A stretch of 25,147 nt of DNA from the IMG/VR virus record IMGVR_UViG_2740892230_000012. One strand, 5' to 3'. The position numbers were made by a program, and so were the translations under genes. The notes beneath the pieces were generated by a model. It did no database searches and was not told where the DNA came from. It saw only the letters and a list, made by a program, of their open reading frames with translations. Numbering within the stretch: position 1 is the first letter of the stretch; every line of letters begins with the position of its first letter. This DNA comes from a virus (lineage: Duplodnaviria > Heunggongvirae > Uroviricota > Caudoviricetes). Shown piece by piece: positions 843 to 23,847 of the stretch.

Positions 843-1713
843 CGAGGCCAGATACTGCGAGGTGGTTTTGCCCTTAATGGTGATGTCTTTTTCCGTCACC
901 CAGCCACCATTACGNNNNNNNNNNTGAGGCCAGATACTGCGACGTGGTTTTGCCCTTAATGGTGATGTCTTTTTCTGTCACCCAGCCACCATTACGCTGT
1001 ATCTGAACCAGCAGGCGGACTTCCGACGGATTCCNNNNNNNNNNCTGTATCTGAACCAGCAGGCGAACTTCCGACGGATTCCTGTCTCCCTTTGAGGTGG
1101 TTTCCACCAGTGCCTGTACACCGAAGGTAAAGCGCAGACGGTCGATGTTTGCCGACGTGATGGTCCGGGTGATCGGCGNNNNNNNNNNGCCGAAAGTAAA
1201 ACGCAGACGGTCAATGTTTGCCGACGTGATGGTCCGGGTGATCGGCGNNNNNNNNNNACCGAAGGTAAAGCGCAGACGGTCGATATTTGCAGACGTGATG
1301 GTCCGGGTGATCGGCGTGTCATATTTCACTTCCGTACCCAGCACCGTCTCGGAGCCGGAGGATTCAAATCCCTCCGGCGGAGTCTGCTCCTGCTCACCAG
1401 CCCGGAACACCACCGTGACACCGGCGATGTTGGTATTCCCATCACTGTCCAGCACCGGCGTACTGTTCAGCAGCANNNNNNNNNNTGTCTGCTCCTGCTC
1501 ACCGGCCCGGAACACCACCGTGACGCCGGATATATTGGTATTCCCCTCACTGTCCAGCACCGGCGTACTGTTCAGCAGCACGCTTTTTAATCCATCCACC
1601 GGACCTTCAACCGGCCCTTCGCTGATGGCATCGATCACACTCAGCAGCTGCGTGGACTTCAGGTTGTCCTTCGCTTCGCGCGGGGTATGCCCCTTACTGC
1701 TGCCTTTACCCAT
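843..1713 (-). CDS. J: tail tip host-specificity protein J, N-terminal part only (several allelic segments separated by N10 gaps)
   Basis: Translation MGKGSSKGHTPREAKDNLKSTQLLSVIDAISEGP... matches my recollection of the lambda J N-terminus almost residue for residue; the remainder of J is absent, the reading frame stops at an assembly gap. Confidence 0.85.
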
Positions 1714-1773
1714 TCCTCACGCTCCATAAATGACAAAACCGCCCGCAGGCGGTTTCACATAAAACATTTTGCA

Positions 1774-3087
1774 TCAGCGACCAATCACCACAACCTGACC
1801 ACCGTCCCCTTCGTCTGCCGTGCTGATCTCCTGAGAAACCACGCGTGACCCCACGCGCATTTCACCGTACAGAACCGGCAGAACATTGCCCTGGGCAACC
1901 ATGTTATCCANNNNNNNNNNGACCACCCGCGACCCCACGCGCATTTCACCGTACAGAACGGGCAGAACATTGCCCTGGGCAACCATGTTATCCANNNNNN
2001 NNNNCCGCGACCCCACACGCATTTCACCGTACAGAACAGGCAAAACATTGCCCTGAGCAACCATGTTATCCAGTGAGGAAAAATAGGTGTTCTGTTTGCC
2101 GTTATCTGTACTGGCTGCCGTGGACGTCCTGGCTTTCGGTGCCAGCATCTGCGCCACACCGCCCAGGATCATACTGGCCCCTGCCGNNNNNNNNNNGAGC
2201 ACCATACTGGCACCGAGAGAAAACAGAATGCCGGTCATACCACCGGCACCAATGGCAGCCCCCCATGTTGCAAGAGTGGCTCCGGCGGTAAAGAATGATC
2301 CGGCAATGGCGGCTGCCCCCAGAACAATCTGGAATACGCCCCCTGACTTGGCCCCGGCGACTCTGGGAACAATATGAATCACAGCGCCGTCAGGCAGAAC
2401 CTCATGTAACTGCGCCGTCAATCCGGACGTGCTGACGTCCCGCCCGGCAATCCGTANNNNNNNNNNGACAATCTGGAATACACCACCTGACTTGGCCCCG
2501 GCGACTCTGGGAACAATATGAATCACAGCGCCATCAGGCAGAGTCTCATGTAACTGCGCCGTTAACCCGGACGTGCTGACGTCCCGCCCGGCAATCCGTA
2601 NNNNNNNNNNTGTACTTGCTGCCGTGGGCGTCCTGGCTTTCGGTGCCAGCATCTGAGCCACACCGCCCAGGATCATACTGGCCCCTGCCGCATACATGCC
2701 CGATACAGCCGCGGCACCCAGCCAGCCCACAGGGTTCCACCATGCCACCGCAATCAGCGCCGCCCCCAGCACCACCTGAAACACACCGCCACTTTTAGCT
2801 CCCGCCAGACGCGGCACGATATGGATCACGGCACCATTTGCCAGCGGCTCATTAAGACGAGCAGACAATTCGGTTTCACCTGCATCACGCCCGGCAATGC
2901 GCACCTGATACCAGCCGTCGCTCAGTTTCTGACGAAACGCCGGGAGCTGTGTGGCCAGTGCCCGGATGGCTTCAGCCCCCGTTTTCACACGAAGGTCGAT
3001 GCGGCGACCAAATCGTTGTAAATCCCCGTAAAGGCAGATGCGCGCCATGCCCGGTGACGCCAGAGGGAGTGTGTGCGTCGCTGCCAT
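1774..3087 (-). CDS. I: tail assembly protein I (length inflated by duplicated allelic segments)
   Basis: MAATHTLPLASPGMARICLYGDLQRFGRRIDLRVKTGAEAIRALATQLPAFRQKLSDGWYQVRIAGRD... and C-terminal ...VVSQEISTADEGDGGQVVVIGR match recalled lambda I; the 437-aa ORF reads through six N10 gaps. Confidence 0.85.
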   Translation of the reverse strand: MAATHTLPLASPGMARICLYGDLQRFGRRIDLRVKTGAEAIRALATQLPAFRQKLSDGWYQVRIAGRDAGETELSARLNEPLANGAVIHIVPRLAGAKSGGVFQVVLGAALIAVAWWNPVGWLGAAAVSGMYAAGASMILGGVAQMLAPKARTPTAASTXXXXRIAGRDVSTSGLTAQLHETLPDGAVIHIVPRVAGAKSGGVFQIVXXXXRIAGRDVSTSGLTAQLHEVLPDGAVIHIVPRVAGAKSGGVFQIVLGAAAIAGSFFTAGATLATWGAAIGAGGMTGILFSLGASMVLXXXXAGASMILGGVAQMLAPKARTSTAASTDNGKQNTYFSSLDNMVAQGNVLPVLYGEMRVGSRXXXXDNMVAQGNVLPVLYGEMRVGSRVVXXXXDNMVAQGNVLPVLYGEMRVGSRVVSQEISTADEGDGGQVVVIGR

Positions 3088-4172
3088 TTGTCGGTATACC
3101 TCTCTCGTTTGCTCAGTTGTTCAGGAATATGGTGCAGCAGCTCGCCGTCACCACAGTAAATGGCGGCATGATTCGGCACCGATGAACCAAAACAGCACAG
3201 CAGCACATCGCCCGNNNNNNNNNNGTACCTCTCTCGTTTGCTCAGTTGTTCAGGAAGATGGTGCAGCAGCTCGCCGTCGCCGCAGTAAATTGCGGCGTGA
3301 TTCGGCACTGATGAACCAAAACAGCACAGCAGCACATCGCCCGGCTGCGCCTCTGTCAGTGCGACACGGTAAAAACCAGTAGCCTCCATATTGTCAAGAT
3401 AGAGATTCTGACCGTGACGCCACCAGTCATNNNNNNNNNNTGCCGCTGACAACGGCACCTGATACAGCCCCGTCGCCTCCAGATTATCCAGATAGAGATT
3501 CTGGCCGTTACGCCACCAGTCATCCTCACGATGAAAGTCCGGCATCTCAATCCCCGCCAGATGATAAGCATNNNNNNNNNNTATCCCCGCGATGAAAATC
3601 CGGCATCTCAATTCCCGCCAGATGGTAAGCGTCCCGGAACAGCGTGTAACAGTCCGTTACCCCGTGCTCAAAGCGCCGCCCGGTGAGATGCGGCACACAG
3701 CGGAACTTATGAATCGTCCCCCGGCAGACCAGCCACCACGGCAAATCACTCTGCACCTGCAGCCGCCGGTCGGCCTCACTCAGCCAGGGCAGACCACCGG
3801 GGTGGCTGTGGACCAGCGCCACAATCTCACCCTGCATTTCTGCCTGCAGCCAGTCTTCCGGCGACATACGGAAATACGCCTCCGGCTCACCGGAGATATT
3901 CACGCAGGGAAANNNNNNNNNNTCCCTGCATTTCTGCACTCAGCCAGTCCTCCGGCGACATCCGGAAATACTCCTCCGGCTCACCGGAGATATTCACGCA
4001 GGGAAANNNNNNNNNNCTCCGGAGCCATCCGGAAATAATCCTCCGGCTCACCGGAAATATTCACGCAGGGAAAATATCTTTCCCCCTCCGGCGCTCTCAC
4101 CACGAAGCCGCACGACTCCGCTGGCGCACATCGCCGGGCGTGCGCCAGAATCGCTGATTCTGTCTCTGTCAT
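2985..4172 (-). CDS. K: tail assembly protein K (inflated by duplicated segments)
   Basis: MTETESAILAHARRCAPAESCGFVV...GEPEAYFRMSPEDWLQAEMQGEIVALVHSHPGG... through ...WRASAFTGIYNDLVAASTFV match recalled lambda K; the 3-prime end overlaps the I start, as in lambda. Confidence 0.85.
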
Positions 4173-4177
4173 GGGAT

Positions 4178-4901
4178 TTACTGCGAAAGTTTGTTAATGG
4201 AAAGGAAGCTGCCAAAGTTGCCGACGTTATTGCGAAACTTACAGCCGCTCAGGCATTTGCTGCATTTATCCTTCGTGATATCGGACGTCGGCTGGTCATA
4301 TTCATCCGCGACTGCCGGACCGTGATAACCGCACTCATCACCGCGATAGGTCCAGGTGCAGGTGTTGGCCAGCATGATACGCCCCGGAAAAACAGCACCA
4401 TCCGTTTCCGTCGGTGTGGAGAGCACAAAGGAGGCACTGACCGCACTCANNNNNNNNNNTGGACAGTACAAAGGAGGCACTCACCGCGCTCAGTTCGCTG
4501 CACTGCTCGATGCGCCAGCGGCTGATCACCTCCTGCTCCGGATCGGCGTCGCTGTTTCCGTTGACGAAGTTCACCGCATCCAGAAAACGGGCGTAAACCT
4601 TACGCCGGACCACCGTTCCGCCGACCAGACTCTGCAGATCTTCCGCCATCCCGGTGACCATACCGTACAGGTTAGAAACCGTCAGCGTGGGGCGCGTACT
4701 GGTGCCTTTGCCATTCAGTTCAAAACCACTCCCCTGAATGGGATACGGCTGATACTGTCGCCCCTGCCAGGTGACCGGCTCACCTTTTTCGTNNNNNNNN
4801 NNTCCACCGACCTCTGTCAGGTCGATTTCCCAGAGCACCACGCTGGCCGACTGCTCCGCACGGGTGCATTCATTCAGTGTTTCCTGCCGGATATCCTGCA
4901 T
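4178..4901 (-). CDS. L: minor tail protein L (lambda-like allele, two internal N10 gaps)
   Basis: MQDIRQETLNECTRAEQSASVVLWEIDLTEVGG... and C-terminus ...CKFRNNVGNFGSFLSINKLSQ match recalled lambda L. Confidence 0.85.
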
Positions 4902-5233
4902 CAGTTCACCACCTGTTCAAACTCTGCGCTGAACTCAACACGCAGCATACTGACCCGCGACGACCATTTTGCGCAGGTCACCTTTATCTGCCGCCACTCA
5001 TAAGGCGGCGTCCACAGAAAGGCTTTCCAGCCCCCGTGCTCTTCCAGAAACGACTCCAGTACCGTGGCCTCCTCACGGGGGACAGAAAGCGTCACGCTGT
5101 ACGTTTTCAGGTTGGCATTCAGCCCGGCAGGCGCTCGCTGAGAATAGCCATCACCAAAGCGCACCTTTCTTACAGAAGGGGCCGAAGCCACATCCATACC
5201 GGGTTTCACTTTCCAGCGGAAGGTCTTCATCAT
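4901..5233 (-). CDS. M: minor tail protein M (lambda-like allele)
   Basis: 110-aa ORF MMKTFRWKVKPGMDVASAPSVRKVRFGDGYSQRAPAGLNANLKTYSVTLSVPREEATVLESFLEEHGGWKAFLWTPPYEWRQIKVTCAKWSSRVSMLRVEFSAEFEQVVN, essentially my recollection of lambda M. Confidence 0.9.
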   Translation of the reverse strand: MMKTFRWKVKPGMDVASAPSVRKVRFGDGYSQRAPAGLNANLKTYSVTLSVPREEATVLESFLEEHGGWKAFLWTPPYEWRQIKVTCAKWSSRVSMLRVEFSAEFEQVVN

Positions 5234-5522
5234 CCACCTCCGGAGAACAGACCACCATCGCGCATCTGTGCCTGAATTTCATCACGGGCACCCTTGCGGG
5301 CCATGTCATACACCGCCTTCAGAGCAGCCGGACCTATCTGCCCGTTCGTGCCGTCGTTGTTAATCACCACATGGTTATTCTGCTCAAACGTCCCGGACGC
5401 CTGCGACCGGCTGTCTGCCATGCTGCCCGGTGTACCGACATAACCGCCGGTGGCATAGCCGCGCATCAGCCGGTAAAGATTCCCCACGCCAATCCGGCTG
5501 GTTGCCTCCTTCGTGAAGACAA
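5230..5522 (-). CDS. H: tape measure protein H, C-terminal fragment (lambda-like allele, cut by N-gap at 5523)
   Basis: ...VFTKEATSRIGVGNLYRLMRGYATGGYVGTPGSMADSRSQASGTFEQNNHVVINNDGTNGQIGPAALKAVYDMARKGARDEIQAQMRDGGLFSGGG matches the recalled lambda H C-terminus. Confidence 0.75.
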
Positions 5523-5532
5523 NNNNNNNNNN

Positions 5533-5770
5533 TGTAACCATAAGGCGGCGTCCACAGAAAGGCCTTCCAGCCCCCGTGCTCAGCCAGAAACGACTCCAGC
5601 GCCGTGGCCTCCTCACGGGAGACAGACAGCGTCACGCTGTACGTTTTCAGGTCAGCGTTCAGCCCGGCAGGCGCACGCTGGGAATAGCCATCACCAAAGC
5701 GCACCGCCCTGACGGAAGGAGCCGATGTCACATCCATCCCGGGTTTCACTTTCCAGCGGAAGGTTTTCAT
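5533..5770 (-). CDS. M: minor tail protein M, N-terminal part (second allele, cut by N-gap)
   Basis: MKTFRWKVKPGMDVTSAPSVRAVRFGDGYSQRAPAGLNADLKTYSVTLSVSREEATALESFLAEHGGWKAFLWTPPYGY, a close variant of lambda M. Confidence 0.75.
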
Positions 5771-6421
5771 CGTCCACCTCCGGAGAACAGACCACCATCG
5801 CGCATCTGTGCCTGAATTTCATCACGGGCACCCTTGCGGGCCATGTCATACACTGCCTTCATCATCTGTGGACCTGGCAGACCATTCGTACCGTCGTTCT
5901 GAATCACCACGTGATTGTTCTGATTAAAATTAATGCCTTCCGTCCGCCGCATCTGCGCCGGACTTCCGGCACCGCCCACATAACCACCTTCCGCATAGCC
6001 CCGCATCAGGCGGTACAGATTGCCGACACCAATCCGGCTGGTCGCCTCCTTCGTGAAGACAAACTCCCCGCGATGAACAATTCCCGCAGGTTCATATTTA
6101 CCCCCCGTCCCCGTAAATCCCCCGGTCGCGAAATGGAAGTTCGCCGCCGCAGCCTGAATGGCCGTCCCCGTGGAGGCAGACGCACCACCACCGAAAGCAC
6201 CGCCAATGGCGCTGCCGATACTCCCGACTATCCCCACCATCGCCTGCTTCAGAAAAATCTCTGTCAGCATGGAGAGCACAGAACGGGTGAAACCACGCCA
6301 GTTCTGTTCGCTGCCGGTCAGCATCGCTGCCATATTCTGTGCAATACCGTCAAAGGTCTGCGTGGCCGCGTTTTTAACCTGCGAAAAACTGTCCGTCGCA
6401 CTTTCCGCCCACTCGCCCCAG
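5767..6421 (-). CDS. H: tape measure protein H, C-terminal ~190 aa (second lambda-like allele)
   Basis: MAAMLTGSEQNWRGFTRSVLSMLTEIFLKQAMVGIVGSIGSAIGG...GGKYEPAGIVHRGEFVFTKEATSRIGVGNLYRLMRGYAEGGYVGG... matches recalled lambda H C-terminal region. Confidence 0.8.
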
Positions 6422-6431
6422 NNNNNNNNNN

Positions 6432-7073
6432 GAACTTACAACCGCTCAGGCATTTGCTACATTTATCCTTCGTGATATCGGACGTTGGCTGGTCATATTC
6501 ATCCGCGACCGCCGGACCGTGATAACCGCACTCATCACCGCGATAGGTCCAGGTGCAGGTGTTGGCCAGCATGATACGTCCCGGAAAAACGGCACCGTCC
6601 GTTTCCGTCGGCGTGGAGAGCACAAAGGAGGCACTGACCGCACTCAGTTCGCTGCACTGCTCGATGCGCCAGCGGCTGATCACCTCCTGCTCCGGATCGG
6701 CGTCGCTGTTTCCGTTGACGAAGTTCACCGCATCCAGAAAACGGGCGTAAACCTTACGCCTGACCACCGTTCCGCCGACCAGACTCTGCAGGTCTTCCGC
6801 CATCCCGGTGACCATGCCGTGCAGGTTAGAGACCGTCAGTGTCGGACGGGCAGCACTGCCCTTACCGTTCAGTTCAAATCCCGTCCCCTGAATGGGGTAT
6901 GCCTGATACTGCCGCCCCTGCCAGGTGACCGGCTCACCTTTTTCGTTCTGCTCATTACAGAAAAAATAACGTTCACCACCGACCTCTGTCAGATCGATTT
7001 CCCAGAGCACCACCTGGGCTGACTGAGTAAGGCGTGTCGTCTCATGATGTGTTTCCTGTGAAATATCCTGCAT
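6432..7073 (-). CDS. L: minor tail protein L (second allele, 3-prime end cut by N-gap)
   Basis: MQDISQETHHETTRLTQSAQVVLWEIDLTEVGGERYFFCNEQNEKGEPVTWQGRQYQAYPIQGTGFELNGKG... is a divergent but clear lambda L homologue. Confidence 0.8.
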
Positions 7074-7082
7074 CAGGGCCTC

Positions 7083-7412
7083 CTATGCCACGACCTGTTC
7101 AAAATCTGCCGTTATGGTTACCCACAGCGCCCCCACGCTTGCCGACCATTTACGACAAACCACCCTGATCGGCTTCCAGTCATAAGGTGGCGTCCACTGA
7201 AATGCGCGGACGCCACCGTGCCGTTCCAGAAAGGCTTTTAAAGATGGGTGTTCGCATTTACGAACACGTATCGTCACGCTGTAAGTCGACAACTGGTTAT
7301 TCAGTCCCGCCGCACGACGCTGTTCATAACCATCGCCCAGCTTCACTGTCACCACTTTCGGCTCTGATACCACATTCATATCCGGGCGCACTTTCCAGTG
7401 AAACGTCTCCAT
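7083..7412 (-). CDS. M: minor tail protein M (divergent third allele)
   Basis: METFHWKVRPDMNVVSEPKVVTVKLGDGYEQRRAAGLNNQLSTYSVTIRVRKCEHPSLKAFLERHGGVRAFQWTPPYDWKPIRVVCRKWSASVGALWVTITADFEQVVA; same architecture as lambda M at roughly half identity; start ATG overlaps the upstream H stop (TAATG). Confidence 0.85.
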   Translation of the reverse strand: METFHWKVRPDMNVVSEPKVVTVKLGDGYEQRRAAGLNNQLSTYSVTIRVRKCEHPSLKAFLERHGGVRAFQWTPPYDWKPIRVVCRKWSASVGALWVTITADFEQVVA

Positions 7413-8210
7413 TACCGATATGCTCCACTTAACCGACCACCATCACGGGCCTGCTGTTGCATAAAGTCCGCTGCTGCTTTTTTCCCGAGGTCATAAACCA
7501 CCTTCAGGGCAGCCGGACCTATCTGCCCGTTCGTGCCATCGTTATTGATCTCGATGTTGTACTGCGGGGCAAACATCGCCATACCTGAACCACCAATATC
7601 CGCCACAACCCCCAGCTTACCGTCAGCACCACGACGCAGAGGCAGAATGGCTTCAGGCCCAGCTTCCCCCATCACACCTGCACCTTTTGCAAAAGCAAAA
7701 AACGTCGGACGGTTAANNNNNNNNNNTGGCAGAATGGCTTCAGGTCCAGCTTCCCCCATCACACCCGCGCCTTTTGCAAAAGCAAAAAACGTCGGACGGT
7801 TAACCACCGTGCCACTGTAGCGACTCAAATCAGCCGACTGATAAACACCGCCATCAGCATTGGCTACAAAATCAAAAGGCAGCGCGGAAGCAATGCCTTT
7901 TACCGCTTTCATTAAAGCTATCTGAGCCATGATTCTGGACATATCTGACAGCACAGAAGAGGTGAAGGATTTGAAATTGAGTTTGCCTGTAGTACAGAAT
8001 GTCGCCAGCCAGTCACTCATGCTACTGAACGCAGACGTGAACAACTGTTCCACTGTCCCGGCTGTGTTATCCGCATTCTCAGTGACATTCTGGAGTGCAC
8101 GCAGGACTCCGTTTTTCCAGTCACCCTGAGCAATTTCAAGCTGTTGCCAATAACGGCGATTCTCATTCAGTTGTCGGTTCAGGCTCTCCGTCAGCGCCTG
8201 CTCGGCCTTT
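7412..8210 (-). CDS. H: tape measure protein H, C-terminal region (divergent allele, internal N-gap at 7717)
   Basis: ...TTGKLNFKSFTSSVLSDMSRIMAQIALMKAVKGIASALPFDFVANADGGVYQS...NNDGTNGQIGPAALKVVYDLGKKAAADFMQQQARDGGRLSGAYR parallels the lambda H C-terminus; 8054..8210 is a variant copy of 8460..8600. Confidence 0.75.
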
Positions 8211-8220
8211 NNNNNNNNNN

Positions 8221-10959
8221 AGACTGATAAACACCACCATCAGCATTGGGCGTCACACTGGCAGTTGCTGCACTCCCCCAGCCAAACGCCGAACCAATCC
8301 CCTTAACTGCCTGCATCATGGACATCTGAGCCATGATTTTTGCCAGATCAGAAAGGAGCGAGGCGGTAAAAGATTTGAAGTTCAGTTTTCCGGTGGTACA
8401 GAATGTTGCCAGTGCATTACCTGCACTATTAAATGCCGCTGTAAGCATCTGCTCCGCAGTGCCTGCCGCATTATCCGCATCTGCCGTGAAATTCTGAAAC
8501 GCCCGCATGGCACCGTTTTTCCAGTTACCCTGAGCAATTTCAAGCTGTTGCCAGTAACGGCGATTCTCATTCAGTTGCCTGTTCAGGCTCTCCGTCAGCG
8601 CCTGCTCGGCCTTTCTGTAGTCATCCGTGTTATATGTCCCTTTCTGCTCACTATCCCGCCTCAACTGCTCCAGCTGTTGCTGGTATTTCTGGCGAAGGCT
8701 CAGTTGTACCTGATATCGCTGCCGCTGCTGATCACCCATACCCACCGTGGCGATATCCAGGTCATGTTGCTGACGCTGAGCGCGCTCTTCTTCAGCCAGT
8801 TGACTGGTCAGCTGAATTGTTTTTTTCTTCAGATCGTTGAGTGCCGTCTGTTTCTGAAGCTCCTGCTGTTTTACATCCAGCAGCGTCAGTGCCTGAATCA
8901 GTTCATCTTTACGGGCCAGCACACTCTTTTCATCTGCCGTCAGTTTTTTCCCGTCCAGGTCGCTGATGCGCTGCTGCAGAGCCAGAAGCTGTTTATGCGC
9001 TTCTGTCATCCTGTCAGTGGCAATGCCTGCTGACTGTCTGGCAGCAGCAATCTGCCCTTCCACCTGTGCCTGTTGCTGGCTGTACTGCAGCAATAACCGG
9101 GTGGCCTCATCATTACGGGTTTCGCGTGTTTTTTTCTTACCGGATGCCAGGGCTTTCTCGTAACGTTCATTTTCACGTTGTATCGCCGCATCCCTGACAG
9201 CCTGATCGGCGTACTGCATGGCATTAATACGCGCAATTTCACGCTGATGTCGTGCTGCTTCCGTTTCATTCATCCGGTTCAGTGCAGCATTTTCAGCATT
9301 ACGGCGTTTCTGTTGCTCCTGATAATTCCGCTCTGCCTGCTCTTTTGCATCCTGCAAATCCTTCTGGCGTTTTTTCTCCTGAAGCTCGTTAAGACGCTGC
9401 TGATCGTATTCAACCTGAGAAGATGATGCCGTCCAGGGGAGTCTTTTCGCCCGCGATACTTTCTCCTGCAAAGTGGCAATCTGCGCATCCAGCGAATCTT
9501 CACGACCAATATTCATGGCCGCATCCCAGAACTGCTTCCACCAGTCAGACAAGGTTTGCAGCGTACTACCCAGCGCATTGAGGTTATTATCAATATCCGC
9601 AGTACGCCGACCGGTTTCCTCTGCCAGTGCAAACATGGCTATCCGTGCAGCATCACTGGACCGTCCCTGATCCCCAAGGACACGTATCTGCTCAAGCTGA
9701 GTGGCAGTAAGAAAATGCAGCTCATTGTCCAGAGCCTTCGCGGCATTTACAGGATCATCCTTCAGCCGCTTAAACTGATTTATGGTATCGCTGACCGACT
9801 GGCCAACCGATCGCTCCATCTGTGCGGCAGCTCTCGCCACCATACCGATATCGTTTCCACGAAATGCACCACTCCCCACCACCTGAGCCAGCGCACCGGC
9901 TGCAGCATGTTGCGTGATACCATTCCCGGAAATAGCACGACTAAGCGTCCACAGCTGCCCGGCAGTGACTCCGGCATAATGCCCCGTCAGCGACAACTGG
10001 CGGTTAAATTCTTCCCCCTCCTTCTGACCGTCATACCAGGCTTTACCCAGACCATAGACGGCCGCGGCAATACCGCCAATAACCCCGCCCAGCATCATGC
10101 CTTTCGGTGACATCAGTGTGTCTATCCATCCGGCACGGTTAGCCAGCGTTATCCCGGATCCCCTCAGCGCACCTAAATTGCCGCGAGCCAGTTCACCTAT
10201 CAGAACGCCGATCTCCTGGCGGGCCGCTGCACTTTTCAGACCCAGCGAATGCGTGGCTTTTCCTGCCTGCTCCATTTTGCGGATATACACTTCTGCAGCA
10301 CTGCTTACCCCCAGCTGGGCAGCCTTAGCACGAAGCAACTCAGAAGAAGAAAGATTCTGGCGGGTTGCCTGCTCTTTAAGCTGACGGATAAACGCCACTT
10401 TCTGTCGGGTAGCCTCTTCCTCAGCCTGTGTAAGAACACGGGTTTTCGCCGTAACCTCAGAAATCAGCGCCAGATAATCCTGCTGACCAATCCCGCCACT
10501 GTTTCTGGCCTGTCGGATCTGCTGCTGAATACGCTGTAACTCCTGCAACCCCGCGCTGGCCTGTTTCACACTGTCAATCTGACGATAAAACGCAGCAGCC
10601 GCTTTATCCTGAGCCTCCGCCAGAGCCATGGCCTGTGCCTGTTCCTCGCGCATTTTCTGGCTCAGTGCCTCCATACGCTGGCGGGTTTGCTCCACCTCGC
10701 GGGCCATGCGTTCATGAGCCTGTGCGTTCTTCTCCACCGTCTGCGCATGGACGGAGGCGGCTGTTGCAGCCGAAGAAGCCGCCTGCGTTGTCTGCCGGGC
10801 GGCCTGAGTCTGACGCTCCATAAAACGCTGCATACGGGCAGAAGACCGTTCTGCATCGCTGGCGGCACCATTCAGAAGGTTTTTGATACGGGGAATTTCA
10901 TTTTTAAACTCTGCCGCATCAATCCCCAAATCAATGACCAGGTTGGCTATCTGGTCCAT
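8221..10959 (-). CDS. H: tail tape measure protein H, main body
   Basis: Long coiled-coil-rich ORF in the H position, uninterrupted by N gaps; proposed start MDQIANLVIDLGIDAAEF resembles recalled lambda H MAEPVGDLVVDLSLDAARF; GGAGGTG Shine-Dalgarno motif 6 nt upstream of the ATG at 10959. Confidence 0.85.
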
Positions 10960-11283
10960 AACGCACACCTCCGGAAATACCTTCTCCAAGATGCATCAGT
11001 TCTTCGTCCGTTCGCTCCGGTATCTCGTTCTCTTCCGGTAAAAGGCTGAAATCAGCCACCGCAGCATCACTGCTGCCGGACACCATTCTCACGATCAATG
11101 CCTTCAGCGAGGCAAACTGCGCATCCATCCACACATCACTGAAGCTCTGCATCCGGAAATAATCGCCCCACTCACCAAGCTCAGTGGCCGACATTTCCGA
11201 CAGCATCCGCCGCCAGTCTGCCCGCCGGAACTCCCGGGCAAGCCGCATGACAAACTGCATTTCCCGCGTCAGGACTTTTCCGG
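10931..11283 (-). CDS. T: tail assembly chaperone T, the -1 frameshift extension of G (expressed as a G-T fusion)
   Basis: Frame translating ...MQFVMRLAREFRRADWRRMLSEMSATELGEWGDYF...GEGISGGVRYGPD resembles recalled lambda T; it is open upstream into the G 3-prime end in the -1 frame. Confidence 0.65.
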
Positions 11284-11835
11284 CGTCAGCACCTCATGCT
11301 CCAAATACCCGGCATTCTCAATGGCTCCCATACCGCTCAGCGACAGAACCATCTCCGCCCNNNNNNNNNNGCCTCATGCTCATCATCCCCGGCATTATCA
11401 ATGGCCCCCATACCGCTCAGCGACAGAACCATCTCCGCCCNNNNNNNNNNAACATCCTGAGACTGTTCCGCATTCCACAGTGAGCGGGAAACTAGCCAGG
11501 CATTGATATCCATCCCCATCCGCAGAANNNNNNNNNNCCGCACCCAGGGCATCATACGACCATGTTGTAATAACGGATGCGCAAAGCGTCTCTACATCCT
11601 TAGACTGATCCGCATTCCACAGTGAGCGGGAAACCAGCCAGGCATTGATATCCATCCCCATCCGCAGAAAAGCAATCTGTCGTTCAGCCTCCGGCAGTTC
11701 TCCCTCCCCGGCATCAAACTTTGCCGTTCGCTGCTGAACAAACGCCAGATATTCAATTCTCTGCAGCCCGGACAGCTCACTGAGCACCACGGACTGTTTT
11801 TCATAATTAAACGTGCCCTGTTTCAGAAACATCAT
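11269..11835 (-). CDS. G: tail assembly chaperone G (span inflated by three N10 gaps and duplicated allelic segments)
   Basis: MMFLKQGTFNYEKQSVVLSELSGLQRIEYLAFVQQRTAKFDAGEGE... lies between V and T and resembles recalled lambda G (MFLK...TLSELSALQRIEHLA); GGTGGAG Shine-Dalgarno motif upstream; stop TGA at 11269..11271. Confidence 0.7.
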
Positions 11836-11892: not shown

Positions 11893-12636
11893 TTAACCTG
11901 CGGCGCTGACAGCCACCGTAGCCACTGCCACAAAATCGCCGTCAGAAGTCATGCCCACAATGCTGACACTGCCCTGCTTCACGCCTTTCACCGTGGCCAC
12001 AAGCCCGTTCAGGGTCACCGTGGCAGTCTGTGGATCTGTCGAATGCACACTGATCGCTTTGTCACTGGCTCCGTCAGGTTTTACTGTAAAGGTCAGCGTG
12101 GTGGTTGCTCCCACATTGACACTGGCAGATGCCGGTGCCACCGTCAGCCCGGTAACGCCCACGGTTTCAGTGCCTTCCTCTGCCAGATACGGACGCCCCA
12201 CACCGCTGATTTTCACGGTGCGGGTCATCACGTCTTTTGAGGCAATGGTTTTACCCAGTGAACTCAGCCAGCCACGGAAAACATCAACAGTACCGTTGGG
12301 ATATTTGATACGAAACGCGCAGACTTCACCGGAGTCGAACAACTGAACCAGTTTTTTCTGCCCGCTGTCACCCGGACGCCAGGCCAGCGTCGCCGAAGTA
12401 TCACCAACGGATTTCTGCCCCTGGGTTGTCGTTTTCCAGTCTGCATCTTCATCATCGAGATAAGTGTCATCTTCTGCATCAGCGGTCATTTCGCCAGGTT
12501 GCAGATCCTTCACCATCGCAAGACGCAGCCAGTCAGTGTCCGACAAAGGGTTCGCAAACGCATCGCCCTTGCCGGTGTACATCCAGAACGTCGTTCCCGC
12601 ACCTTTCGTTTTTGCCAGTGGATTTGGTGTGGTCAT
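11893..12636 (-). CDS. V: major tail protein V
   Basis: MTTPNPLAKTKGAGTTFWMYTGKGDAFANPLSDTDWLRLAMVKDLQPGEMTADAEDDTYLDDEDADWKTT... matches recalled lambda V including the C-terminal Ig-like segment; AAGGAGGTG Shine-Dalgarno upstream; the track ORF extends further 5-prime over the U gene and that extension is rejected. Confidence 0.9.
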   Translation of the reverse strand: MTTPNPLAKTKGAGTTFWMYTGKGDAFANPLSDTDWLRLAMVKDLQPGEMTADAEDDTYLDDEDADWKTTTQGQKSVGDTSATLAWRPGDSGQKKLVQLFDSGEVCAFRIKYPNGTVDVFRGWLSSLGKTIASKDVMTRTVKISGVGRPYLAEEGTETVGVTGLTVAPASASVNVGATTTLTFTVKPDGASDKAISVHSTDPQTATVTLNGLVATVKGVKQGSVSIVGMTSDGDFVAVATVAVSAAG

Positions 12637-12646
12637 TGCCACCTCC

Positions 12647-13048
12647 TTAATTCGTGTACGTGATCTGGTACGTGATTTCCGCCATCGCCCAGGTGGCCAT
12701 CTCATTATCACGTTGATAGTTAAAACCGAGTGGGATCAGGGTGTCGATGAGTCCGGAAAGTGCCGGTACATCATTCAGGGCCGGGAAAATGGTGCTCTCC
12801 ATCCACATATCCAGCTCTGAATCCGGTGCCTGTGCCCGGATGAAGACGGCAATATGCAGAACAGCCTGCCAGTCATCTTCATCCGTCATTTTTCCGGTGT
12901 ACTGAGCATCACTCAGCCACACCGCCACGGCAGGCAGTTCCTGCGCATCAATAAATGCCGGAAGCCCGTCAAAAAACGTGGCGCTGTCTCCACACTGTTC
13001 CCGAAGGCGTGCCAGTACGGCCTGGCGGATTTGTGTATGTCGGTTCAT
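12647..13048 (-). CDS. U: tail terminator protein U
   Basis: MNRHTQIRQAVLARL...TFFDGLPAFIDAQELPAVAVWLSDAQYTGKMTDEDDWQAVLHIAVFIRAQAPDSELDMWMES... matches recalled lambda U; start ATG overlaps the Z stop (ATGA). Confidence 0.9.
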   Translation of the reverse strand: MNRHTQIRQAVLARLREQCGDSATFFDGLPAFIDAQELPAVAVWLSDAQYTGKMTDEDDWQAVLHIAVFIRAQAPDSELDMWMESTIFPALNDVPALSGLIDTLIPLGFNYQRDNEMATWAMAEITYQITYTN

Positions 13049-13623
13049 CGGGTCAGCCATAATCTCAGTTGTTGTTTCAGTGCATACCCCAGCTGTTTCG
13101 GCATTTCCGCAGCAATGATGTGGTCGCGGGCATCTTCAAATGCCTGTGTCAGCGGTCCGGACAGCGGGATTTTCACCACATCAATGGGGTAACGATTTTT
13201 GCCATCAATACGTCGCATCACATGCCAGCGACCATTCGCCAGTTGCTGAATAAACGCATCCCGGAAAAGATATTTACCCACCTTCAGCACACTGCCACGG
13301 TACTGCAGTTTTCCACCACGCCGGGCCAGTCTGACCCGGGCTGTCCCCAGCTTAATGGCGGGCAGATTGCCCCGGTTAACGCGGATCCTGGCCGTCATTT
13401 TTCCTGACGGACTGGCTTTAAACACCCGGACACGCTGACGTACCAGTTTCAGGGGGATCCCTTTCACCTGGTTATCTCCCGCAACGGTATCCCCGGCAAC
13501 CTGCCGGGTGGCAACCGAGACCGCTTTCTGTGCCACACGGTTTATCGCCCATGCGCTGGCCTGTGGCACCATACGGGTATCAAGGCTGTTCAGATTGCGG
13601 ATGGCATTCTCAAGCCCCTTCAT
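13045..13623 (-). CDS. Z: minor tail protein Z
   Basis: 192 aa; MKGLENAIRNLNSLDTRMVPQASAWAINRVAQKAV...RWHVMRRIDGKNRYPIDVVKIPLSGPLTQAFEDARDHI...LGYALKQQLRLWLTR aligns along its length with recalled lambda Z. Confidence 0.9.
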   Translation of the reverse strand: MKGLENAIRNLNSLDTRMVPQASAWAINRVAQKAVSVATRQVAGDTVAGDNQVKGIPLKLVRQRVRVFKASPSGKMTARIRVNRGNLPAIKLGTARVRLARRGGKLQYRGSVLKVGKYLFRDAFIQQLANGRWHVMRRIDGKNRYPIDVVKIPLSGPLTQAFEDARDHIIAAEMPKQLGYALKQQLRLWLTR

Positions 13624-13634
13624 CCCACACCTCT

Positions 13635-13910
13635 TTACTCAATAAAGATCATTGGCTTACCGTTAAAACGTTCATGCCGTGTGACCGTCCATTGTTGTCC
13701 GTCATAAACAACGCGATCCCCGCGCCGTGGGCGGTATCCCGAAGAAAACACCACCAGAGAGACCGCAGGTCCGGACAGAGCATTCAGCTCTGCCAGTGTT
13801 TCTCCCGGGATCACAGTCATATCGACATCATTAATCGAGGCTGTCTTTCCCATCTTTCTGACCGTGATAGCATCCATACGCGCTGCCAGCCGGGAAAAGG
13901 GATCAGACAT
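13635..13910 (-). CDS. head-tail joining protein, FII-like
   Basis: 91 aa immediately upstream of Z, the lambda FII position; the motif RRGDRVVYDGQQWTVTRHE parallels recalled lambda FII RRGDTLTIGEENFWVDRV. Confidence 0.7.
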   Translation of the reverse strand: MSDPFSRLAARMDAITVRKMGKTASINDVDMTVIPGETLAELNALSGPAVSLVVFSSGYRPRRGDRVVYDGQQWTVTRHERFNGKPMIFIE

Positions 13911-14226
13911 TGAGTTTTACCGGCACTTCTTCTGCACTGGTTCCGGCATCTGCCCAGACAACCCCGACCAGCGGATCAGAGCCGCTGTTAGTCAACTGAA
14001 CTTTTCCGGACTTCAGATAAACCTTCTTACCCGTTTTCATGTCATCCGTTTTCAGCTTAGGCAGCATAAACACACCTTCGGTCATACCGTCGCCTGTTTC
14101 ACCTTGTGGAATATCGGTCAGCGCCACCGCAAAAACATCACCCACCTGCACCAGATCTCCGCTGCTGATGGCTGCACTGGCAACAATCGCCACCGTTTTT
14201 CCTTCTTCTACAAAATTCTTTGCCAT
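13903..14226 (-). CDS. small phage head protein, DUF2190-like (possible decoration or cement protein)
   Basis: 108 aa from MAKNFVEEGKTVAIVASAAISSGDLVQVGD...; Gly/Ala/Val-rich small protein directly after the capsid gene, as in the DUF2190 family; GGAGA Shine-Dalgarno upstream. Confidence 0.5.
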   Translation of the reverse strand: MAKNFVEEGKTVAIVASAAISSGDLVQVGDVFAVALTDIPQGETGDGMTEGVFMLPKLKTDDMKTGKKVYLKSGKVQLTNSGSDPLVGVVWADAGTSAEEVPVKLNV

Positions 14227-14269
14227 AACTGTCTCCGCACAGCCCCGTTCAGGGGCTGATTTCAGGTAC

Positions 14270-14288
14270 AAAAAAAGCCCTTACGGGC
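14270..14288 (-). terminator. intrinsic terminator-like hairpin downstream of the capsid gene
   Basis: Minus-strand GCCCGTAAGGGC followed by TTTTTTT; a second hairpin CAGCCCC-GTTCA-GGGGCTG lies at 14240..14258. Confidence 0.5.
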
Positions 14289-14312
14289 CATCAGAGTTGT
14301 TGTCTGCGACGT

Positions 14313-16277
14313 TTACGCCGTACATTTCACCAGACCGCGGTGATCAACTGGCGCGACACCGGCGTCAATACGCACTTTCGTTGTCACGCCATCCACACTG
14401 AAGCCCTCCATCTGATCAATATATGGCGTATCCACACCGTTGAGATAAGCCACTTCAATCGTATCGGAGCCTTTTGACGCAGCCAGGTAGAAGGTGGTCT
14501 GGCTGTTATCATCAAGACGAGGCTCTGCAATAACGGTCGCAAAATCTTTCACCGGGTTAATAATACCGGCGTTAATGTCAGCCCCCTTGACACTTGAGGA
14601 GCGAATGACCTGGTTAGCAACAGACTCCATCGCCGTCGGTACCAGTACGAACGCAGGACGAATATTCAGATGACGCTCCCCCTCTTTCTGAACGCGCATC
14701 AACTGGCGGGCTTTATCCAGCGATGCCACGTCCATTGCCGCGCTCTCCAGTACGTTTGCATGTTTCGCTTTATCGAACAGACTTACATTATCTGTGGAGA
14801 TTTTCGGGTTAGACGTCAGAATGGCATAAACCAGATCGGCAATAGTGGATTTCGCCGCACGGCCCAGTTTCATCGGGACATCGGTCAGCATATTCAGATC
14901 ATCATTGATAATGGCCTGACGGGTGATACTGAACAGCTCGCCATAGGTCGCCAGTGCAATAGTGGCCTGTTTATCTCCGGTGGTGACGTATTTATATTCC
15001 GCCCCTTCACGCACCTGACGCAGAGCACTGAAGCCCCCCATACCCACACGATGGGCAATTTTAAAATCAGACAACTGACCTTTCCGCGTCCACTGTTCAT
15101 AGGTTTCAGGGGCATCTTCCCAGCCCTGCAGAATGGCTTTGTTCGCAACATCCAGCAGAATATTACCGAAGTCAGACGTACTGTGTGTGAACGCCGCACC
15201 GACCATCTGCATCGGGTTATAACTGGAAACCCCAATACCCCGTTCAGTCAGTGACATACGGGCATATTCACGCAGGGTCATCCCGTTGTAGACATTATCA
15301 CGTTCGGTTTTTTCAAATCCGGCACGCGCCATCAGCGCCTGGCGGATCCCGTCCCCCACAAAATTACCGTTACCGGCATAAATATGAGCAGGGGTATTTT
15401 TATTGGATGGCGTGGACTCGCGCCCCATCTCGTTCAACAGCTTTTCGCGGGCCTGCTCCAGCGAACATTCAGGATCGGCAAGACACTGAGCCTGCAGCGT
15501 CTGATAACGCCCGCCAAACATGGCAAACAGATCATTAATACCGTTTACACGCGCTTTTTGCTCTGCCAGGACCTGCGCACGGATACTGTTTTCATCCACC
15601 ACGGGTGCTGCTGCCTGCACTGGCGTCCGGGAAGCTGCAGGTTCATTATCCTGTACGCGTGGAGCACTGTTGCGTGGCGGAGTAATCATGTTTCGAATGG
15701 ATTCCGGCATCTTTTTAAATTCCTCTGTACGTTTTGACTGAATACATGCCATTGCCTTAACGGCTGGCGTCACCTGATCAGCAAATCCCTGTGCCAGACA
15801 TTCGGCACCGGACATCCAGGTCTCATCCGCCAGCATGGCAGCAATTTCATCGGTGGTTTTCCCGGTTTTCTGTGCATAAGCGGGTAACAGAACCGCCTCA
15901 ACTTTATCGAGCAGGTCGGCATAGGTGCGCATGTCCTCCGCATCACCGCCCGTAAAGCCAAATGGTTTATGAATCATCATGAAGGTGTTTTCCGGCATAA
16001 TGACCGGGTTTCCCACCATCGCAATGACCGACGCCATTGATGCCGCCACACCGTCGACATAAACGGTAATGGACGCACCATGTGTTTTCAGCGCATTAAA
16101 AATGGCGATGCCTTCAAAGACATCGCCACCCGGTGAATTGATATGGAGATTAATGTGGGTGATATCGCCCAGTGCATTCAGATCACTGATAAACTGCTTC
16201 GCTGTAACACCCCAGAAACCAATCTCGTCATAAATATAAATATNNNNNNNNNNGTCACTCTGGTGACCAGCCTGCAT
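14313..16277 (-). CDS. prohead protease (ClpP/S14-like) fused to the major capsid protein
   Basis: N-terminal IYIYDEIGFWGVTAKQFISDLNALGDITHINLHINSPGGDVFEGIAIFNALKTHG...VDGVAASMASVIAMVG is a ClpP-type prohead protease; the capsid assignment for the C-terminal ~400 aa is by elimination, since no separate capsid ORF lies between portal and FII-like. Start at MQAGHQSD is tentative because an N-gap sits at 16244..16253. Confidence 0.75.
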   Translation of the reverse strand: MQAGHQSDXXXXIYIYDEIGFWGVTAKQFISDLNALGDITHINLHINSPGGDVFEGIAIFNALKTHGASITVYVDGVAASMASVIAMVGNPVIMPENTFMMIHKPFGFTGGDAEDMRTYADLLDKVEAVLLPAYAQKTGKTTDEIAAMLADETWMSGAECLAQGFADQVTPAVKAMACIQSKRTEEFKKMPESIRNMITPPRNSAPRVQDNEPAASRTPVQAAAPVVDENSIRAQVLAEQKARVNGINDLFAMFGGRYQTLQAQCLADPECSLEQAREKLLNEMGRESTPSNKNTPAHIYAGNGNFVGDGIRQALMARAGFEKTERDNVYNGMTLREYARMSLTERGIGVSSYNPMQMVGAAFTHSTSDFGNILLDVANKAILQGWEDAPETYEQWTRKGQLSDFKIAHRVGMGGFSALRQVREGAEYKYVTTGDKQATIALATYGELFSITRQAIINDDLNMLTDVPMKLGRAAKSTIADLVYAILTSNPKISTDNVSLFDKAKHANVLESAAMDVASLDKARQLMRVQKEGERHLNIRPAFVLVPTAMESVANQVIRSSSVKGADINAGIINPVKDFATVIAEPRLDDNSQTTFYLAASKGSDTIEVAYLNGVDTPYIDQMEGFSVDGVTTKVRIDAGVAPVDHRGLVKCTA

Positions 16278-21100: not shown

Positions 21101-21458
21101 CAGCCATGACGAACGTCTGATACAGCACCCTGCATGAATGGCATCGGGATAATCCAGAAAGGAATAGCATCGTACCCACAAGAATCTGTGTGAGTGTCCT
21201 GTTTCTTCCACCCCCGCACAGGACTGGCGAGCATGAGGGACAAACCCGCGAATCATTAGCGCGGTAAAAACCCGGTGTGCATCGTTTTTGATTATTCCCG
21301 NNNNNNNNNNTCGCAGAAGGAGTTCCCCGTCGGGCTACGGTCTCTGTTAATACGGGAATACGGCGACGATACAGCGCATGATGTGTCAGGCTTGAATACC
21401 TTTATCCGTTAAAAGGGATATCAGTTAAGTTATCCCGTGTAGGGTATAAGCCATTATC

Positions 21459-21487
21459 AAAGCCACTCTGTAGGGAGTGGCTTTTGT
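21459..21487 (+). terminator. terminator-like hairpin on the plus strand in the Rz-cos intergenic region
   Basis: AAGCCACTC-TGTAGGG-GAGTGGCTT followed by TTTGT; no ORF of 60 aa or more in the vicinity. Confidence 0.35.
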
Positions 21488-21693
21488 AATGGCAATAAAA
21501 AGCCCCGCGAATACGAGGCTAAATCCTGGTATTTGTAATGACTGGCTCTTATCTCAACGCAGCCCCTTACCGCGCGCAAGATGCTCAATATCAAGCATCA
21601 GCAATGAGATGTTTAATCTGGATTCACTCCAGAAGTGATAACCACCATGTCTACAGAGCCAGATGTGAAGGATGATGAGTAAAATTATCGCTA

Positions 21694-22299
21694 TCATCGA
21701 AGGCATTGCGTCCTGATGTATTCCTGAAGCGTTCTCAGTGCTGTTTGGTCGCTGATGATTCCGTCCCGGATACCGAGAACGTTTCGTCCAGCAACTGGAG
21801 AGAGTTCGACGGTGGCATCATTGCCCATGCCGGAGGCGCTGGAGGTTTCGGCTGAGGATGGCACAGGGCATTTTCCTTTGACGAACACCCGACCACCATT
21901 ATCAAGCTTGCGCCGAAGAGCATCATTTTCAGCTTTCGCATCAGCTAACTCCTTCGTGTATTTAGCATCGAGTGCATCAGCAGAACGCTGGCGCTGCTGC
22001 ATGTCAGTAATGGTGGCGGTCGCCTGCTTCAGCTCACTGACTTTTTTATCTCGCTGTTCTTTGTAGGCGATGGCGTTATCACGGTAATGATNNNNNNNNN
22101 NTGCATCGAGCGCAGCAACATCACGCTGACGCATCTGCATGTCAGTAATTGCCGCGTTCGCCAGCTTCAGTTCTCTGACATTTTTGTCGCGCTGGGCTTT
22201 GTAGGTAATGGCGTTATCACGGTAATGATTCAGCCCCAGACTAAGCACACCACAGGCTACCAGCAGGACAATAATCACCACACACAGAACACGGTTCAT
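21694..22299 (-). CDS. Rz: i-spanin Rz (contains N-gap at 22092 with a duplicated allelic segment)
   Basis: [83 protein letters not shown]... matches recalled lambda Rz through the N-terminal half. Confidence 0.85.
21735..21941 (-). CDS. Rz1: o-spanin Rz1, lipoprotein embedded in the +1 frame of Rz
   Basis: [44 protein letters not shown]... has a lipobox (VVGC) and a proline-rich mature region, fully nested in Rz as in lambda. Confidence 0.75.
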
Positions 22300-22300
22300 A

Positions 22301-22387
22301 TCACCACCAACGGATTGCCCAGACCAGAACAGCAATGGCCACAATACGAATGGCAAATGCCATTGCCCGAATAAGTTCAGCACTCAT
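22301..22387 (-). CDS. hypothetical 28-aa hydrophobic peptide directly upstream of Rz
   Basis: [28 protein letters not shown]; its stop TGA lies 1 nt before the Rz ATG; below the ORF-track length cutoff, found by manual translation. Confidence 0.25.
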
Positions 22388-22517
22388 CTTTTTAAAGTTC
22401 ACGATTTCAGCGCAATGACCAGTTTTGCCAGCCCATACAGCATCGGAGACACAGCAATACCGACCGCCACCCACTTAATAGCAAAAGCCAGCGCTCTGCT
22501 GATGTCATCAGTCACTG

Positions 22518-22649
22518 TCACCCCAGCAGCCCCGACGAAGACAACATCACCCAGGCGAGGGACAGAAAAAGAGCAACCAGCATTAGTGAAAATGAAATAC
22601 CGACAATCACACACAGGACCTTTGCCGGCGTTATGAGTTTGTCTGACAT
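22518..22649 (-). CDS. hypothetical 43-aa single-pass membrane peptide
   Basis: MSDKLITPAKVLCVIVGISFSLMLVALFLSLAWVMLSSSGLLG; AAGGGG Shine-Dalgarno 5 nt upstream of the ATG. Confidence 0.3.
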   Translation of the reverse strand: MSDKLITPAKVLCVIVGISFSLMLVALFLSLAWVMLSSSGLLG

Positions 22650-22651
22650 AG

Positions 22652-22747
22652 CTACCCCTTAATTGCCACAATTAACTGGGATACTACCCATAAAAAAGGG
22701 ATGCTCCAGACCAGCAAAAATTTCCAGTTTGGTAATTGACTAATCAT
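22652..22747 (-). CDS. hypothetical 31-aa single-pass membrane peptide
   Basis: MISQLPNWKFLLVWSIPFLWVVSQLIVAIKG; GGGAG about 9 nt upstream; its stop overlaps the Shine-Dalgarno of the next peptide. Confidence 0.3.
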   Translation of the reverse strand: MISQLPNWKFLLVWSIPFLWVVSQLIVAIKG

Positions 22748-22810
22748 GAGTCGCAACTCCCTAATCAGTTTGCTAAAATCAATCAAGGCAGCCTCCCATA
22801 GCTTACTGCC

Positions 22811-22858
22811 ATAAAAACAAAACCCCGCTTGCTGCCAACAAACGGGGTTTTTACTTTT
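22811..22858. terminator. bidirectional intrinsic terminator-like hairpin downstream of the endolysin
   Basis: AAAACCCCGCTTGCTGCCAACAAACGGGGTTTTTAC: CCCCG/CGGGG stem flanked by A-run and T-run. Confidence 0.5.
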
Positions 22859-22941
22859 ATTCACTTACGTTTCGCCAGTTCGCAGGATTTCGTGTTATCC
22901 GCCCGCGTGGCCATGCCTTATTTTTCAGCAAAATATTCTGC

Positions 22942-23624
22942 TTATCTGTCGATACCCCAGCACGCCAGCGCGCTCTCCTGGTCACGACGGGATACCTGAC
23001 CGTAGCAGTTGTTTGAACGAATACGGCAGTCTCTGCCACCGTCCTTAATCCACCNNNNNNNNNNCTCACTTACATTTTGCCAGTTCGCAGGATTTCATGT
23101 TATCCGCCCGCGTGGCCATGCCTTATTTTTCNNNNNNNNNNCTTGGCCAACGTCATTTATTAGCAAAATATTCTGCTTATCTGTCGATTCCCCAGCACGC
23201 CAGCGCGCTNNNNNNNNNNTGCTCCCCTGCGATCACCAGCATTAATTCGTCTGTAAAACGTCGACGGGAAACACTTACCGGGACCAATGTTGTACGGACA
23301 GAATGACGCGATCCCCGCTTTCTGGGGTTCGGTCAATGGCACTCTGATGTTTTTCTCCACCCATGCCAGCGCCTTATCACGTTCGATGGCGTTAACCTGG
23401 TCGCATTTCTCCTTCGACAACTTCATGCCCGGGACGACAGGTTTACCATCCACCAGAATGGCACCGCGACAGATGGTCCAGATACCCGCGCCATCACGGT
23501 ATGCCGTGGTGTGGTTACCTTCCTTTTCATCCAGAAACTGGTCGAGAATGTCAGGCGCAGGCGCACCAGCGGCAATCAGCGCCAGAACGGCAGCCGACAG
23601 GCCGTATTTGATTTTGGTGTTCAT
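22942..23624 (-). CDS. SAR endolysin, GH24 T4-lysozyme family (span inflated by three N10 gaps and duplicated C-terminal segments)
   Basis: MNTKIKYGLSAAVLALIAAGAPAP is a Gly/Ala-rich weakly hydrophobic N-terminus typical of signal-arrest-release domains; catalytic spacing E-8aa-D-5aa-T in DEKEGNHTTAYRDGAGIWTICRG; C-terminus ...WIKDGGRDCRIRSNNCYGQVSRRDQESALACWGIDR. Confidence 0.85.
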
Positions 23625-23660
23625 GGATATATTAAATATTCAGCCGCTGTCCCTGGCCCA

Positions 23661-23847
23661 CTAAATACGCACTTTAAGATAAGTCAGCCCCGGATGAAGC
23701 CAGTAAGCCGGCACTTTTTTAAAGGGTGGAGTATTAAAATCACGAAGAAGAGCCTCCCGCACAATTGCATCCTTATCAGCACCACTGGCCAGCGCTTCAA
23801 TCTCAGCAGCTACCTGCAGATATCCCATGCAACGGCCAACGCGCTTC
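23661..23847 (-). CDS. hypothetical protein X, C-terminal fragment (copy 3), directly upstream of the endolysin
   Basis: ...CMGYLQVAAEIEALASGADKDAIVREALLRDFNTPPFKKVPAYWLHPGLTYLKVRI-stop, 36 nt before the endolysin ATG; visible part is soluble and not holin-like; N-terminus lost in the N-gap at 23848. Confidence 0.4.

Follow-up and report, generated by a model that had tools for sequence, protein, structure and literature searches.

We analysed three copies of the junction between the C-terminus of the tape measure gene H and the genes M and L, which lie in series within a 25,147-nt virus sequence (IMG/VR record IMGVR_UViG_2740892230_000012, Caudoviricetes; this whole stretch is referred to below as the window). 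H, M and L belong to the tail genes of lambdoid phages, and the copies fall within positions 4178–8210; all gene pieces described here are on the minus strand. The three alleles are real and ordinary, and their adjacency is very probably a scaffold artefact in which alternative alleles of one locus were stacked behind one another. The alleles are already known, i.e., that of λ itself (copy 1), a λ-type variant (copy 2) and the cdtI/HannyBb type (copy 3), and there is no new biology in their juxtaposition. None of the joins between the copies is observed sequence.

By direct count the window holds 360 N in 36 runs of exactly 10 N each, which split it into 37 segments of 59–4706 nt; in the open reading frame (ORF) listing the translations of 3000–9500 are broken by "XXXX" blocks. 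Five of these spacers lie inside the 4 kb of interest (4450–4459, 4793–4802, 5523–5532, 6422–6431 and 7717–7726), and a sixth (8211–8220) adjoins its end. Every copy-to-copy junction is a 10-N run (5523–5532, 6422–6431, 7717–7726, 8211–8220), and the limits of the copies at 5522/5533, 6421/6432 and 8210 coincide with spacer edges. The spacer between copies 1 and 2 (5523–5532) sets an H fragment against the interior of M; the one between copies 2 and 3 (6422–6431) sets the interior of H against the interior of L. Genes are severed where segments end: the cut in M is at 5533, that in L at 6432, and those in H at 5522, 6421, 7716 and 8210. All the same, the frame of each gene fragment stays open over its entire length, so these are undamaged parts of functional genes, as opposed to decayed repeats. 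A tandem duplication would be read as unbroken sequence across each copy-to-copy junction; the flanks found here are allelic overlaps or mid-gene breaks.

The segments were compared all against all. Most segments ended in sequence that recurred, imperfectly, where a following segment began (33–333 nt, 85–97% identity), which indicates that neighbouring pieces are different versions of one and the same stretch. No exact suffix-prefix overlap of at least 15–20 nt was found between segments in either orientation, and this ruled out the segments being adjacent graph nodes with their k-mer overlaps kept. The spacer at 4793–4802 masks a real gap of about 28 nt (λ 13528–13555; L residues ERYFFCNEQN), whereas the other spacers mask negative gaps, i.e., overlaps; the 10 N are thus fixed placeholders and not estimates of size.

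When tiled onto reference genomes the window contracted. Its positions 4017–7550 (3534 nt) fell as six pieces on one 1839-nt K-L-M-H stretch of E. coli genomes, and about 24.1 kb (843–24984) fell on some 17.4 kb of the PhiR40_1 phage genome, colinear and all on a single strand. Across λ 12449–16002, 3554 nt of reference were represented by 6692 nt of window: 1322 nt at a depth of one, 1326 nt at a depth of two and 906 nt at a depth of three, and never deeper. The longest run at a depth of three (λ 12808–13337, 530 nt) coincides exactly with the H end and M. The H-M-L junction was single-copy in 12 of the 12 natural loci fetched. The window keeps the order and strand of H-M-L-K-I-J; as written the genes are not single-copy (depth up to three), but they become so once the stacked alleles are collapsed. 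Fixed spacers, overlapping but non-identical neighbours (85–97%) and collapse onto a shorter reference, all features of a stacked-allele scaffold, were found together.

The gene assignments are secure for each copy. A full match to the gpM family (PF05939, Phage_min_tail; gathering score 39 bits) spans 108 profile positions, and such a match was obtained for M of copy 1 (4901–5233; E = 1e-39, 135.6 bits, profile 1–108) and of copy 3 (7083–7412; E = 1e-39, 135.7 bits, profile 1–108); M of copy 2 (5533–5770; E = 2e-29, 102.4 bits) covers profile 1–76 only, stopping with the segment end at 5533. L pieces matched PF05100 (Phage_tail_L) at 6432–7073 (309 bits), 4460–4792 (179 bits, profile 16–125) and 4178–4449 (126 bits, profile 117–206). 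The C-terminal region of λ gpL is cysteine-rich and is associated with a 4Fe-4S cluster (PMC11101478); in the corresponding stretch, CTWTYRGDEC...KCSKCLSGC, all five cysteines were kept in both L alleles. A tape measure gpH is recognized by PF06791 or PF09718 followed by a C-terminal tail that ends just before, or overlaps, the start of M. The H pieces at 5767–6421 (64.6 bits) and 7727–8210 (87.5 bits) matched PF09718, and the overlaps between H stop and M start were present; the H ends at 5230–5522 and 7412–7716 lie downstream of the Tape_meas_lam_C domain and have no Pfam match.

Copy 1 was homologous to copy 2 with a blastn E value of 3e-163 and to copy 3 with 1e-29. DNA identity to copy 1 was 84% for copy 2 and 65% for copy 3, with indels; identity of the M proteins was 92% and 56%, and that of the H ends 80% and 52%, respectively. 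By these values the copies differ far beyond sequencing error, and their similarity lies far beyond chance. That there is one locus, whose copies differ by sequencing or consensus error, has practically no probability: the copies do map to one homologous locus, but their nucleotide and M protein identities are far too low, indels separate them, all the fragments keep their reading frames, and for each copy there is an independent natural lineage with 97–99.7% identity. The measured identities have already refuted this reading. The original prediction, which placed three H C-terminus / M / L copies at these positions and supposed at least three lambdoid tail modules in the source material, is in this respect borne out: Pfam and the comparison with λ support the identities of M, L and H, the differences are not limited to the level of sequencing error, the three alleles have their matches (97–99%) in three different known lineages, and the stacking depth reaches three and never exceeds it. 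Its statement that the junction appears three times holds for M, each of the three being preceded by an H end; copy 2 has no L, L of copy 1 is pieced from three segments and L of copy 3 is incomplete. The packing of the alleles into 4 kb is that of a scaffold and not that of a molecule.

Could the three units nonetheless be adjacent in nature? A real tandem array would be one molecule with three partial, diverged H'-M-L' units, for example scars of illegitimate recombination, with the N runs representing small sequencing gaps. The pieces do share one record and one orientation, and because the N runs mask the joins adjacency is formally possible. We consider such an array highly improbable, since every join is an N spacer, the units are severed mid-gene, and adjacent ends overlap as alleles and do not continue into new sequence. 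The stacking, unlike gene duplications, affects pieces down to 59 nt throughout K, I and J. Each of the 12 natural loci has a single junction, and in 5,426 complete E. coli genomes the arrangement was found in none: for window 4017–7550, 0 of 4,417 matching records covered at least 80% of the query in one place. We give scarcely any credence either to the related proposal that the pieces are linked in one prophage remnant, where serial partial H'-M-L' units from three lambdoid lineages would form a recombination graveyard within the tail-tip operon and the N runs would mask short unresolved joins.

Several observations weigh against stacking by a scaffold and should be set beside this evidence. 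The N runs formally mask the content of each join, and a pattern spanning the spacer at 6422–6431 had 0 matches in the viral and genome collections. Only the segments 1–616 and 3441–3571 had a full-length 100% match in the collections searched, and an exact 150-mer of copy 2 had 0 matches in the metagenome, genome and viral collections. Finally, segment 6432–7716 is out of rank in the reference order.

We suggest that the layout arose as follows. It would start from short reads whose assembly remained fragmented, the source containing no fewer than three related lambdoid phages or prophages, among which the tail-tip module L-K-I-J is nearly identical (90–98%) and the tape measure C-terminus and M are strongly divergent. 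In the near-identical stretches the assembly graph would tangle and break into pieces of 59–600 nt; in the divergent H/M stretch each allele would build its own contig of 0.7–1.3 kb. This pattern of fragmentation would be expected because the H end and M are 37–62% identical to λ but L onward is 92–98% identical. A scaffolding or ordering step may then have lined the pieces up within one record, all oriented alike and following the order of the genome, with a 10-N placeholder for each join that could not be closed, so that alternative alleles of one stretch would be written serially instead of superposed. Near-identical prophage modules are well known to break short-read assemblies, as in the genomes of enterohaemorrhagic E. 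coli with their many lambdoid prophages. A direct example of such repeat structure is found in the E. coli genome AP022811.1, where two prophages about 96 kb apart (L011, 1191561–1205893; L012, 1287203–1301535) carry the identical 110-aa copy-1 M, surrounded by near-identical tail genes. The number of tail module places per E. coli genome had a median of 2 and ranged up to 13; with the AP022811.1 pair, this makes a single multi-lysogen as plausible a source as a mixture of strains.

We infer that the software step behind the layout was scaffolding or ordering. The same artefact could have been reached by another route that we regard as possible though unlikely, namely that contigs were ordered against a reference, or the contigs of a bin deliberately joined, with a fixed 10-N linker and without paired-read scaffolding. 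All 36 spacers being exactly 10 N, whether the true gap was positive (+28 nt) or negative, would fit such a procedure, as would the near-perfect sorting of segment ends by their reference end coordinate. In the papers found, 10-N runs denote only unresolved gaps or else linkers, the latter for concatenating scaffolds (PMC9894930). A clean sort is contradicted by two pieces: segment 6432–7716 is misranked, so that a simple sort by reference cannot fully explain the layout, and 1–832 stands 22 kb away from the place of its homologue. Concatenating a bin at random, for its part, would not yield uniform orientation and colinearity. Some de Bruijn assemblers also write a fixed 10-N gap at joins that they fail to close.

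Copy 1 is the λ allele. Its core, segment 19 (4803–5522), holds L codons 1–33 (4803–4901), a complete M (4901–5233) and the last 96 H codons (5230–5522), and it aligned with λ 13527–12808 at 99.2% identity across all 720 nt; M and the H end were 98.2% and 99% identical to the λ proteins. Copy 1 shares with λ H-M-L (NC_001416, 12808–14127) the 4-nt H/M and 1-nt M/L overlaps. As it differs from λ at 6 of 720 nucleotides, it represents a wild relative and not laboratory λ; many E. coli genomes matched it at 99.3%. The remainder of its L is split between two further segments. Segment 18 (4460–4792) is 110 codons from the middle of L, without gene start or end, and matched λ 13888–13556 at 98.5% and copy 3 L at 91.6% over 333 nt. 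Segment 17 (4017–4449) holds the C-terminal 89 codons of L with the stop (4178–4449), the L-K intergenic stretch and the N-terminus of K; it matched λ 14286–13856 at 94% and copy 3 (6432–6646) at 96.3%; as many as three alleles, this one included, are stacked here. The L protein pieces from 4460–4792 and 4178–4449 were 98% identical to λ L. Segments 17 and 18 overlap by 33 nt that are just 88% identical, and in the L read across the three segments the 10 residues SAVSASFVLS are duplicated and ERYFFCNEQN is absent. We rejected 4178–5522 as one haplotype, since the best relatives differ: λ for 4803–5522 (99.2%), and the loci L011–L013 for 4460–4792 (99.7%) and for 4017–4449 (98.2%).

Copy 2, segment 20 (5533–6421), is an orphan 889-nt piece without L. 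It consists of M codons 1–79 (5533–5770), truncated at profile position 76 of 108, where the segment stops, and the last 217 H codons (5767–6421). It aligned with λ 13337–12449 at 83.5% identity, and across the H C-terminus and M start it was 92% identical to phage 2B8 and 89.8% identical to phage 21. The best match (97.1%) was a prophage in E. coli PK8241 (NZ_CP080139.1), where the relative of copy 2 lies in an ordinary λ-type head and tail context; 5,426 E. coli genomes and 50,697 phage records yielded none closer. Copy 2 is a rarer, λ-type variant. The tail-tip operon of the PK8241 prophage has three extra genes between L and K (7619–9189 of the locus). Their annotated products are a DNA-binding protein of the Arc family, a hypothetical protein and an antirepressor-like protein with a P22AR C-terminal domain; this looks like a moron insertion.

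Copy 3 begins with segment 21 (6432–7716), which holds L codons 1–214 (6432–7073), a complete M (7083–7412) and the last 100 H codons (7412–7716); the C-terminus of L is missing, its final 18 residues being lost at the segment end. The segment aligned with λ from 14070 to about 12800 at 78% identity, and with E. coli chromosomes at 99.7% over its full length. Segment 22 (7727–8210) is an internal H piece of 161 codons of the same type, 99.2% identical to locus L001 and 99.0% to L005. Its first 77 nt repeat imperfectly the last 77 nt of segment 21 (a 76-nt overlap, 96% identical), and the two collapse onto a contiguous 1691 nt in cdtI. Copy 3 together with 7727–8210 was 98.0%, 97.8% and 97.7% identical to the tail modules of HannyBb, cdtI and PhiR40_1. 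In eight fetched cdtI-type loci (L001–L008) the M protein was identical to that of copy 3, the H end corresponding to 7412–7716 was 96–98% identical, and the layout was the same (1-nt H/M overlap, 9-nt M-L spacer), with M a single gene in the order Z-U-V-G-T-H-M-L-K-I-J-Lom.

The phages matched by copy 3 also match the rest of the window: HannyBb, cdtI, PhiR40_1 and mEp460, with matching E. coli prophages, correspond to the whole window backbone, which is 95–97% identical to phages of the cdtI/HannyBb/PhiR40 type. Since backbone and copy 3 (98%) resemble the same phages, copy 3 belongs with the backbone, and is its cognate allele; copies 1 and 2 are the foreign, λ-type pieces. The original prediction had singled out copy 3 as a distinct lineage, which reverses the relationship: it is of the same type as the backbone, and its M protein was matched exactly in 51,521 index blocks of public assemblies. 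The main body of H follows on segment 23 (8221–11360), whose low end (330–400 nt, from 8221) is 78% identical to 7727–8210 over about 330 nt. This low end (8221–8620) was 78% identical to all eight cdtI-type loci and the remainder of the segment 95.5–95.9%; 8221–8620 is a fourth allele of a region that varies within the tape measure protein. Among the fetched loci it had no close relative.

In a sliding comparison of copy 3 with λ, identity was 37–62% through the H end and M, and 92–98% from about 60 nt into L onward, which puts the mosaic boundary at about window position 7014. At the protein level, the divergent H C-terminus and M were 36% and 56% identical to λ, and copy 3 L was 92.5% identical. 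Within the divergent H C-terminus there is an island of 87% identity at λ 12961–13020 (window ~7494–7554), encoding INNDGTNGQIGPAALK, which is exact in copies 1 and 3; copy 2, otherwise nearer λ, has IQNDGTNGLPGPQMMK. The pattern is a hint of a motif under constraint, or else of a local exchange. In λ the gpM hexamer sits on a pseudo-hexameric hub formed by gpL and gpJ, and inside the tube the gpH C-terminus contacts gpI (PMC11101478); this structure fits the idea that the H end and M may vary together as a unit.

It had further been supposed that copy 3 may go with another J and another host range. The window contains only the first ~500 nt of J (λ 15505–16002), as stacked alleles 90–98% identical to λ. 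In the eight loci with the identical M, the N-terminal 900 residues of J were 93–97% identical to λ J, but the last 160 residues were of at least four types, 41–71% identical to each other and 42–47% to λ; the downstream fibre genes also varied. With at least four J ends behind one M, the H/M allele does not predict the receptor-binding part of J, and the supposed pairing is not supported; the receptor-binding end of J reassorts independently of the H/M allele.

Allele stacking continues through the start of J, I and K (843–4006). Peptides occur twice or three times across spacers there, for example PITRTITSANIDRLRFTFG three times in J, DNMVAQGNVLPVLYGEMRVGSR three times in I and FPCVNISGEPE three times in K. 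This gives rise to chimeric ORFs such as "I" at 1774–3087 (437 aa) and "J" at 910–1713 (267 aa); the "L" ORF at 6318–7073 (251 aa) crosses a spacer as well. At the far low end, 1–616 is 100% identical to the late-region orf5/orf6 (YdfR family) of the Stx2-converting phage 86, and 1–616 and 627–832 are alleles (85–93%) of 23220–23847 near the lysis genes, yet they adjoin the start of J, 22 kb away; 1–832 has the look of a piece put in the wrong place, or of the scaffold wrapping around. The lysis cassette itself (21311–23847) is interrupted by spacers with stacked alleles; read from the sequence alone, its putative ORFs include an Rz-like spanin (21694–22383), small membrane ORFs and a lysozyme-like protein (23160–23624).

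The value of these observations is mainly one of quality control. Windows with regular 10-N runs need to be read segment by segment, and in them gene order, copy number and spacer-crossing ORFs are no evidence. The biology restates the known mosaicism of lambdoid phages, in that a divergent H C-terminus and M are fused, within the first ~60 nt of L, to a λ-like (92–98%) L-K-I-J body. If the three phages were phased, they would provide a modest natural case of co-occurring phages with a common tail-tip module.

Compared with known systems, the window agrees with λ in the pieces of its tail-tip operon, but its H body, shaft, head and terminase have no or only distant (66%) nucleotide similarity to λ. 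In genomes of the HannyBb/cdtI type the junction is single and contiguous, whereas in the window it is severed at 6432 and at 7716/7727 and flanked by foreign alleles. A further parallel is with assemblies of E. coli carrying multiple lambdoid prophages, which show the same breakage; the window differs from them in that the pieces were not left as separate contigs, but were serialised with 10-N spacers.

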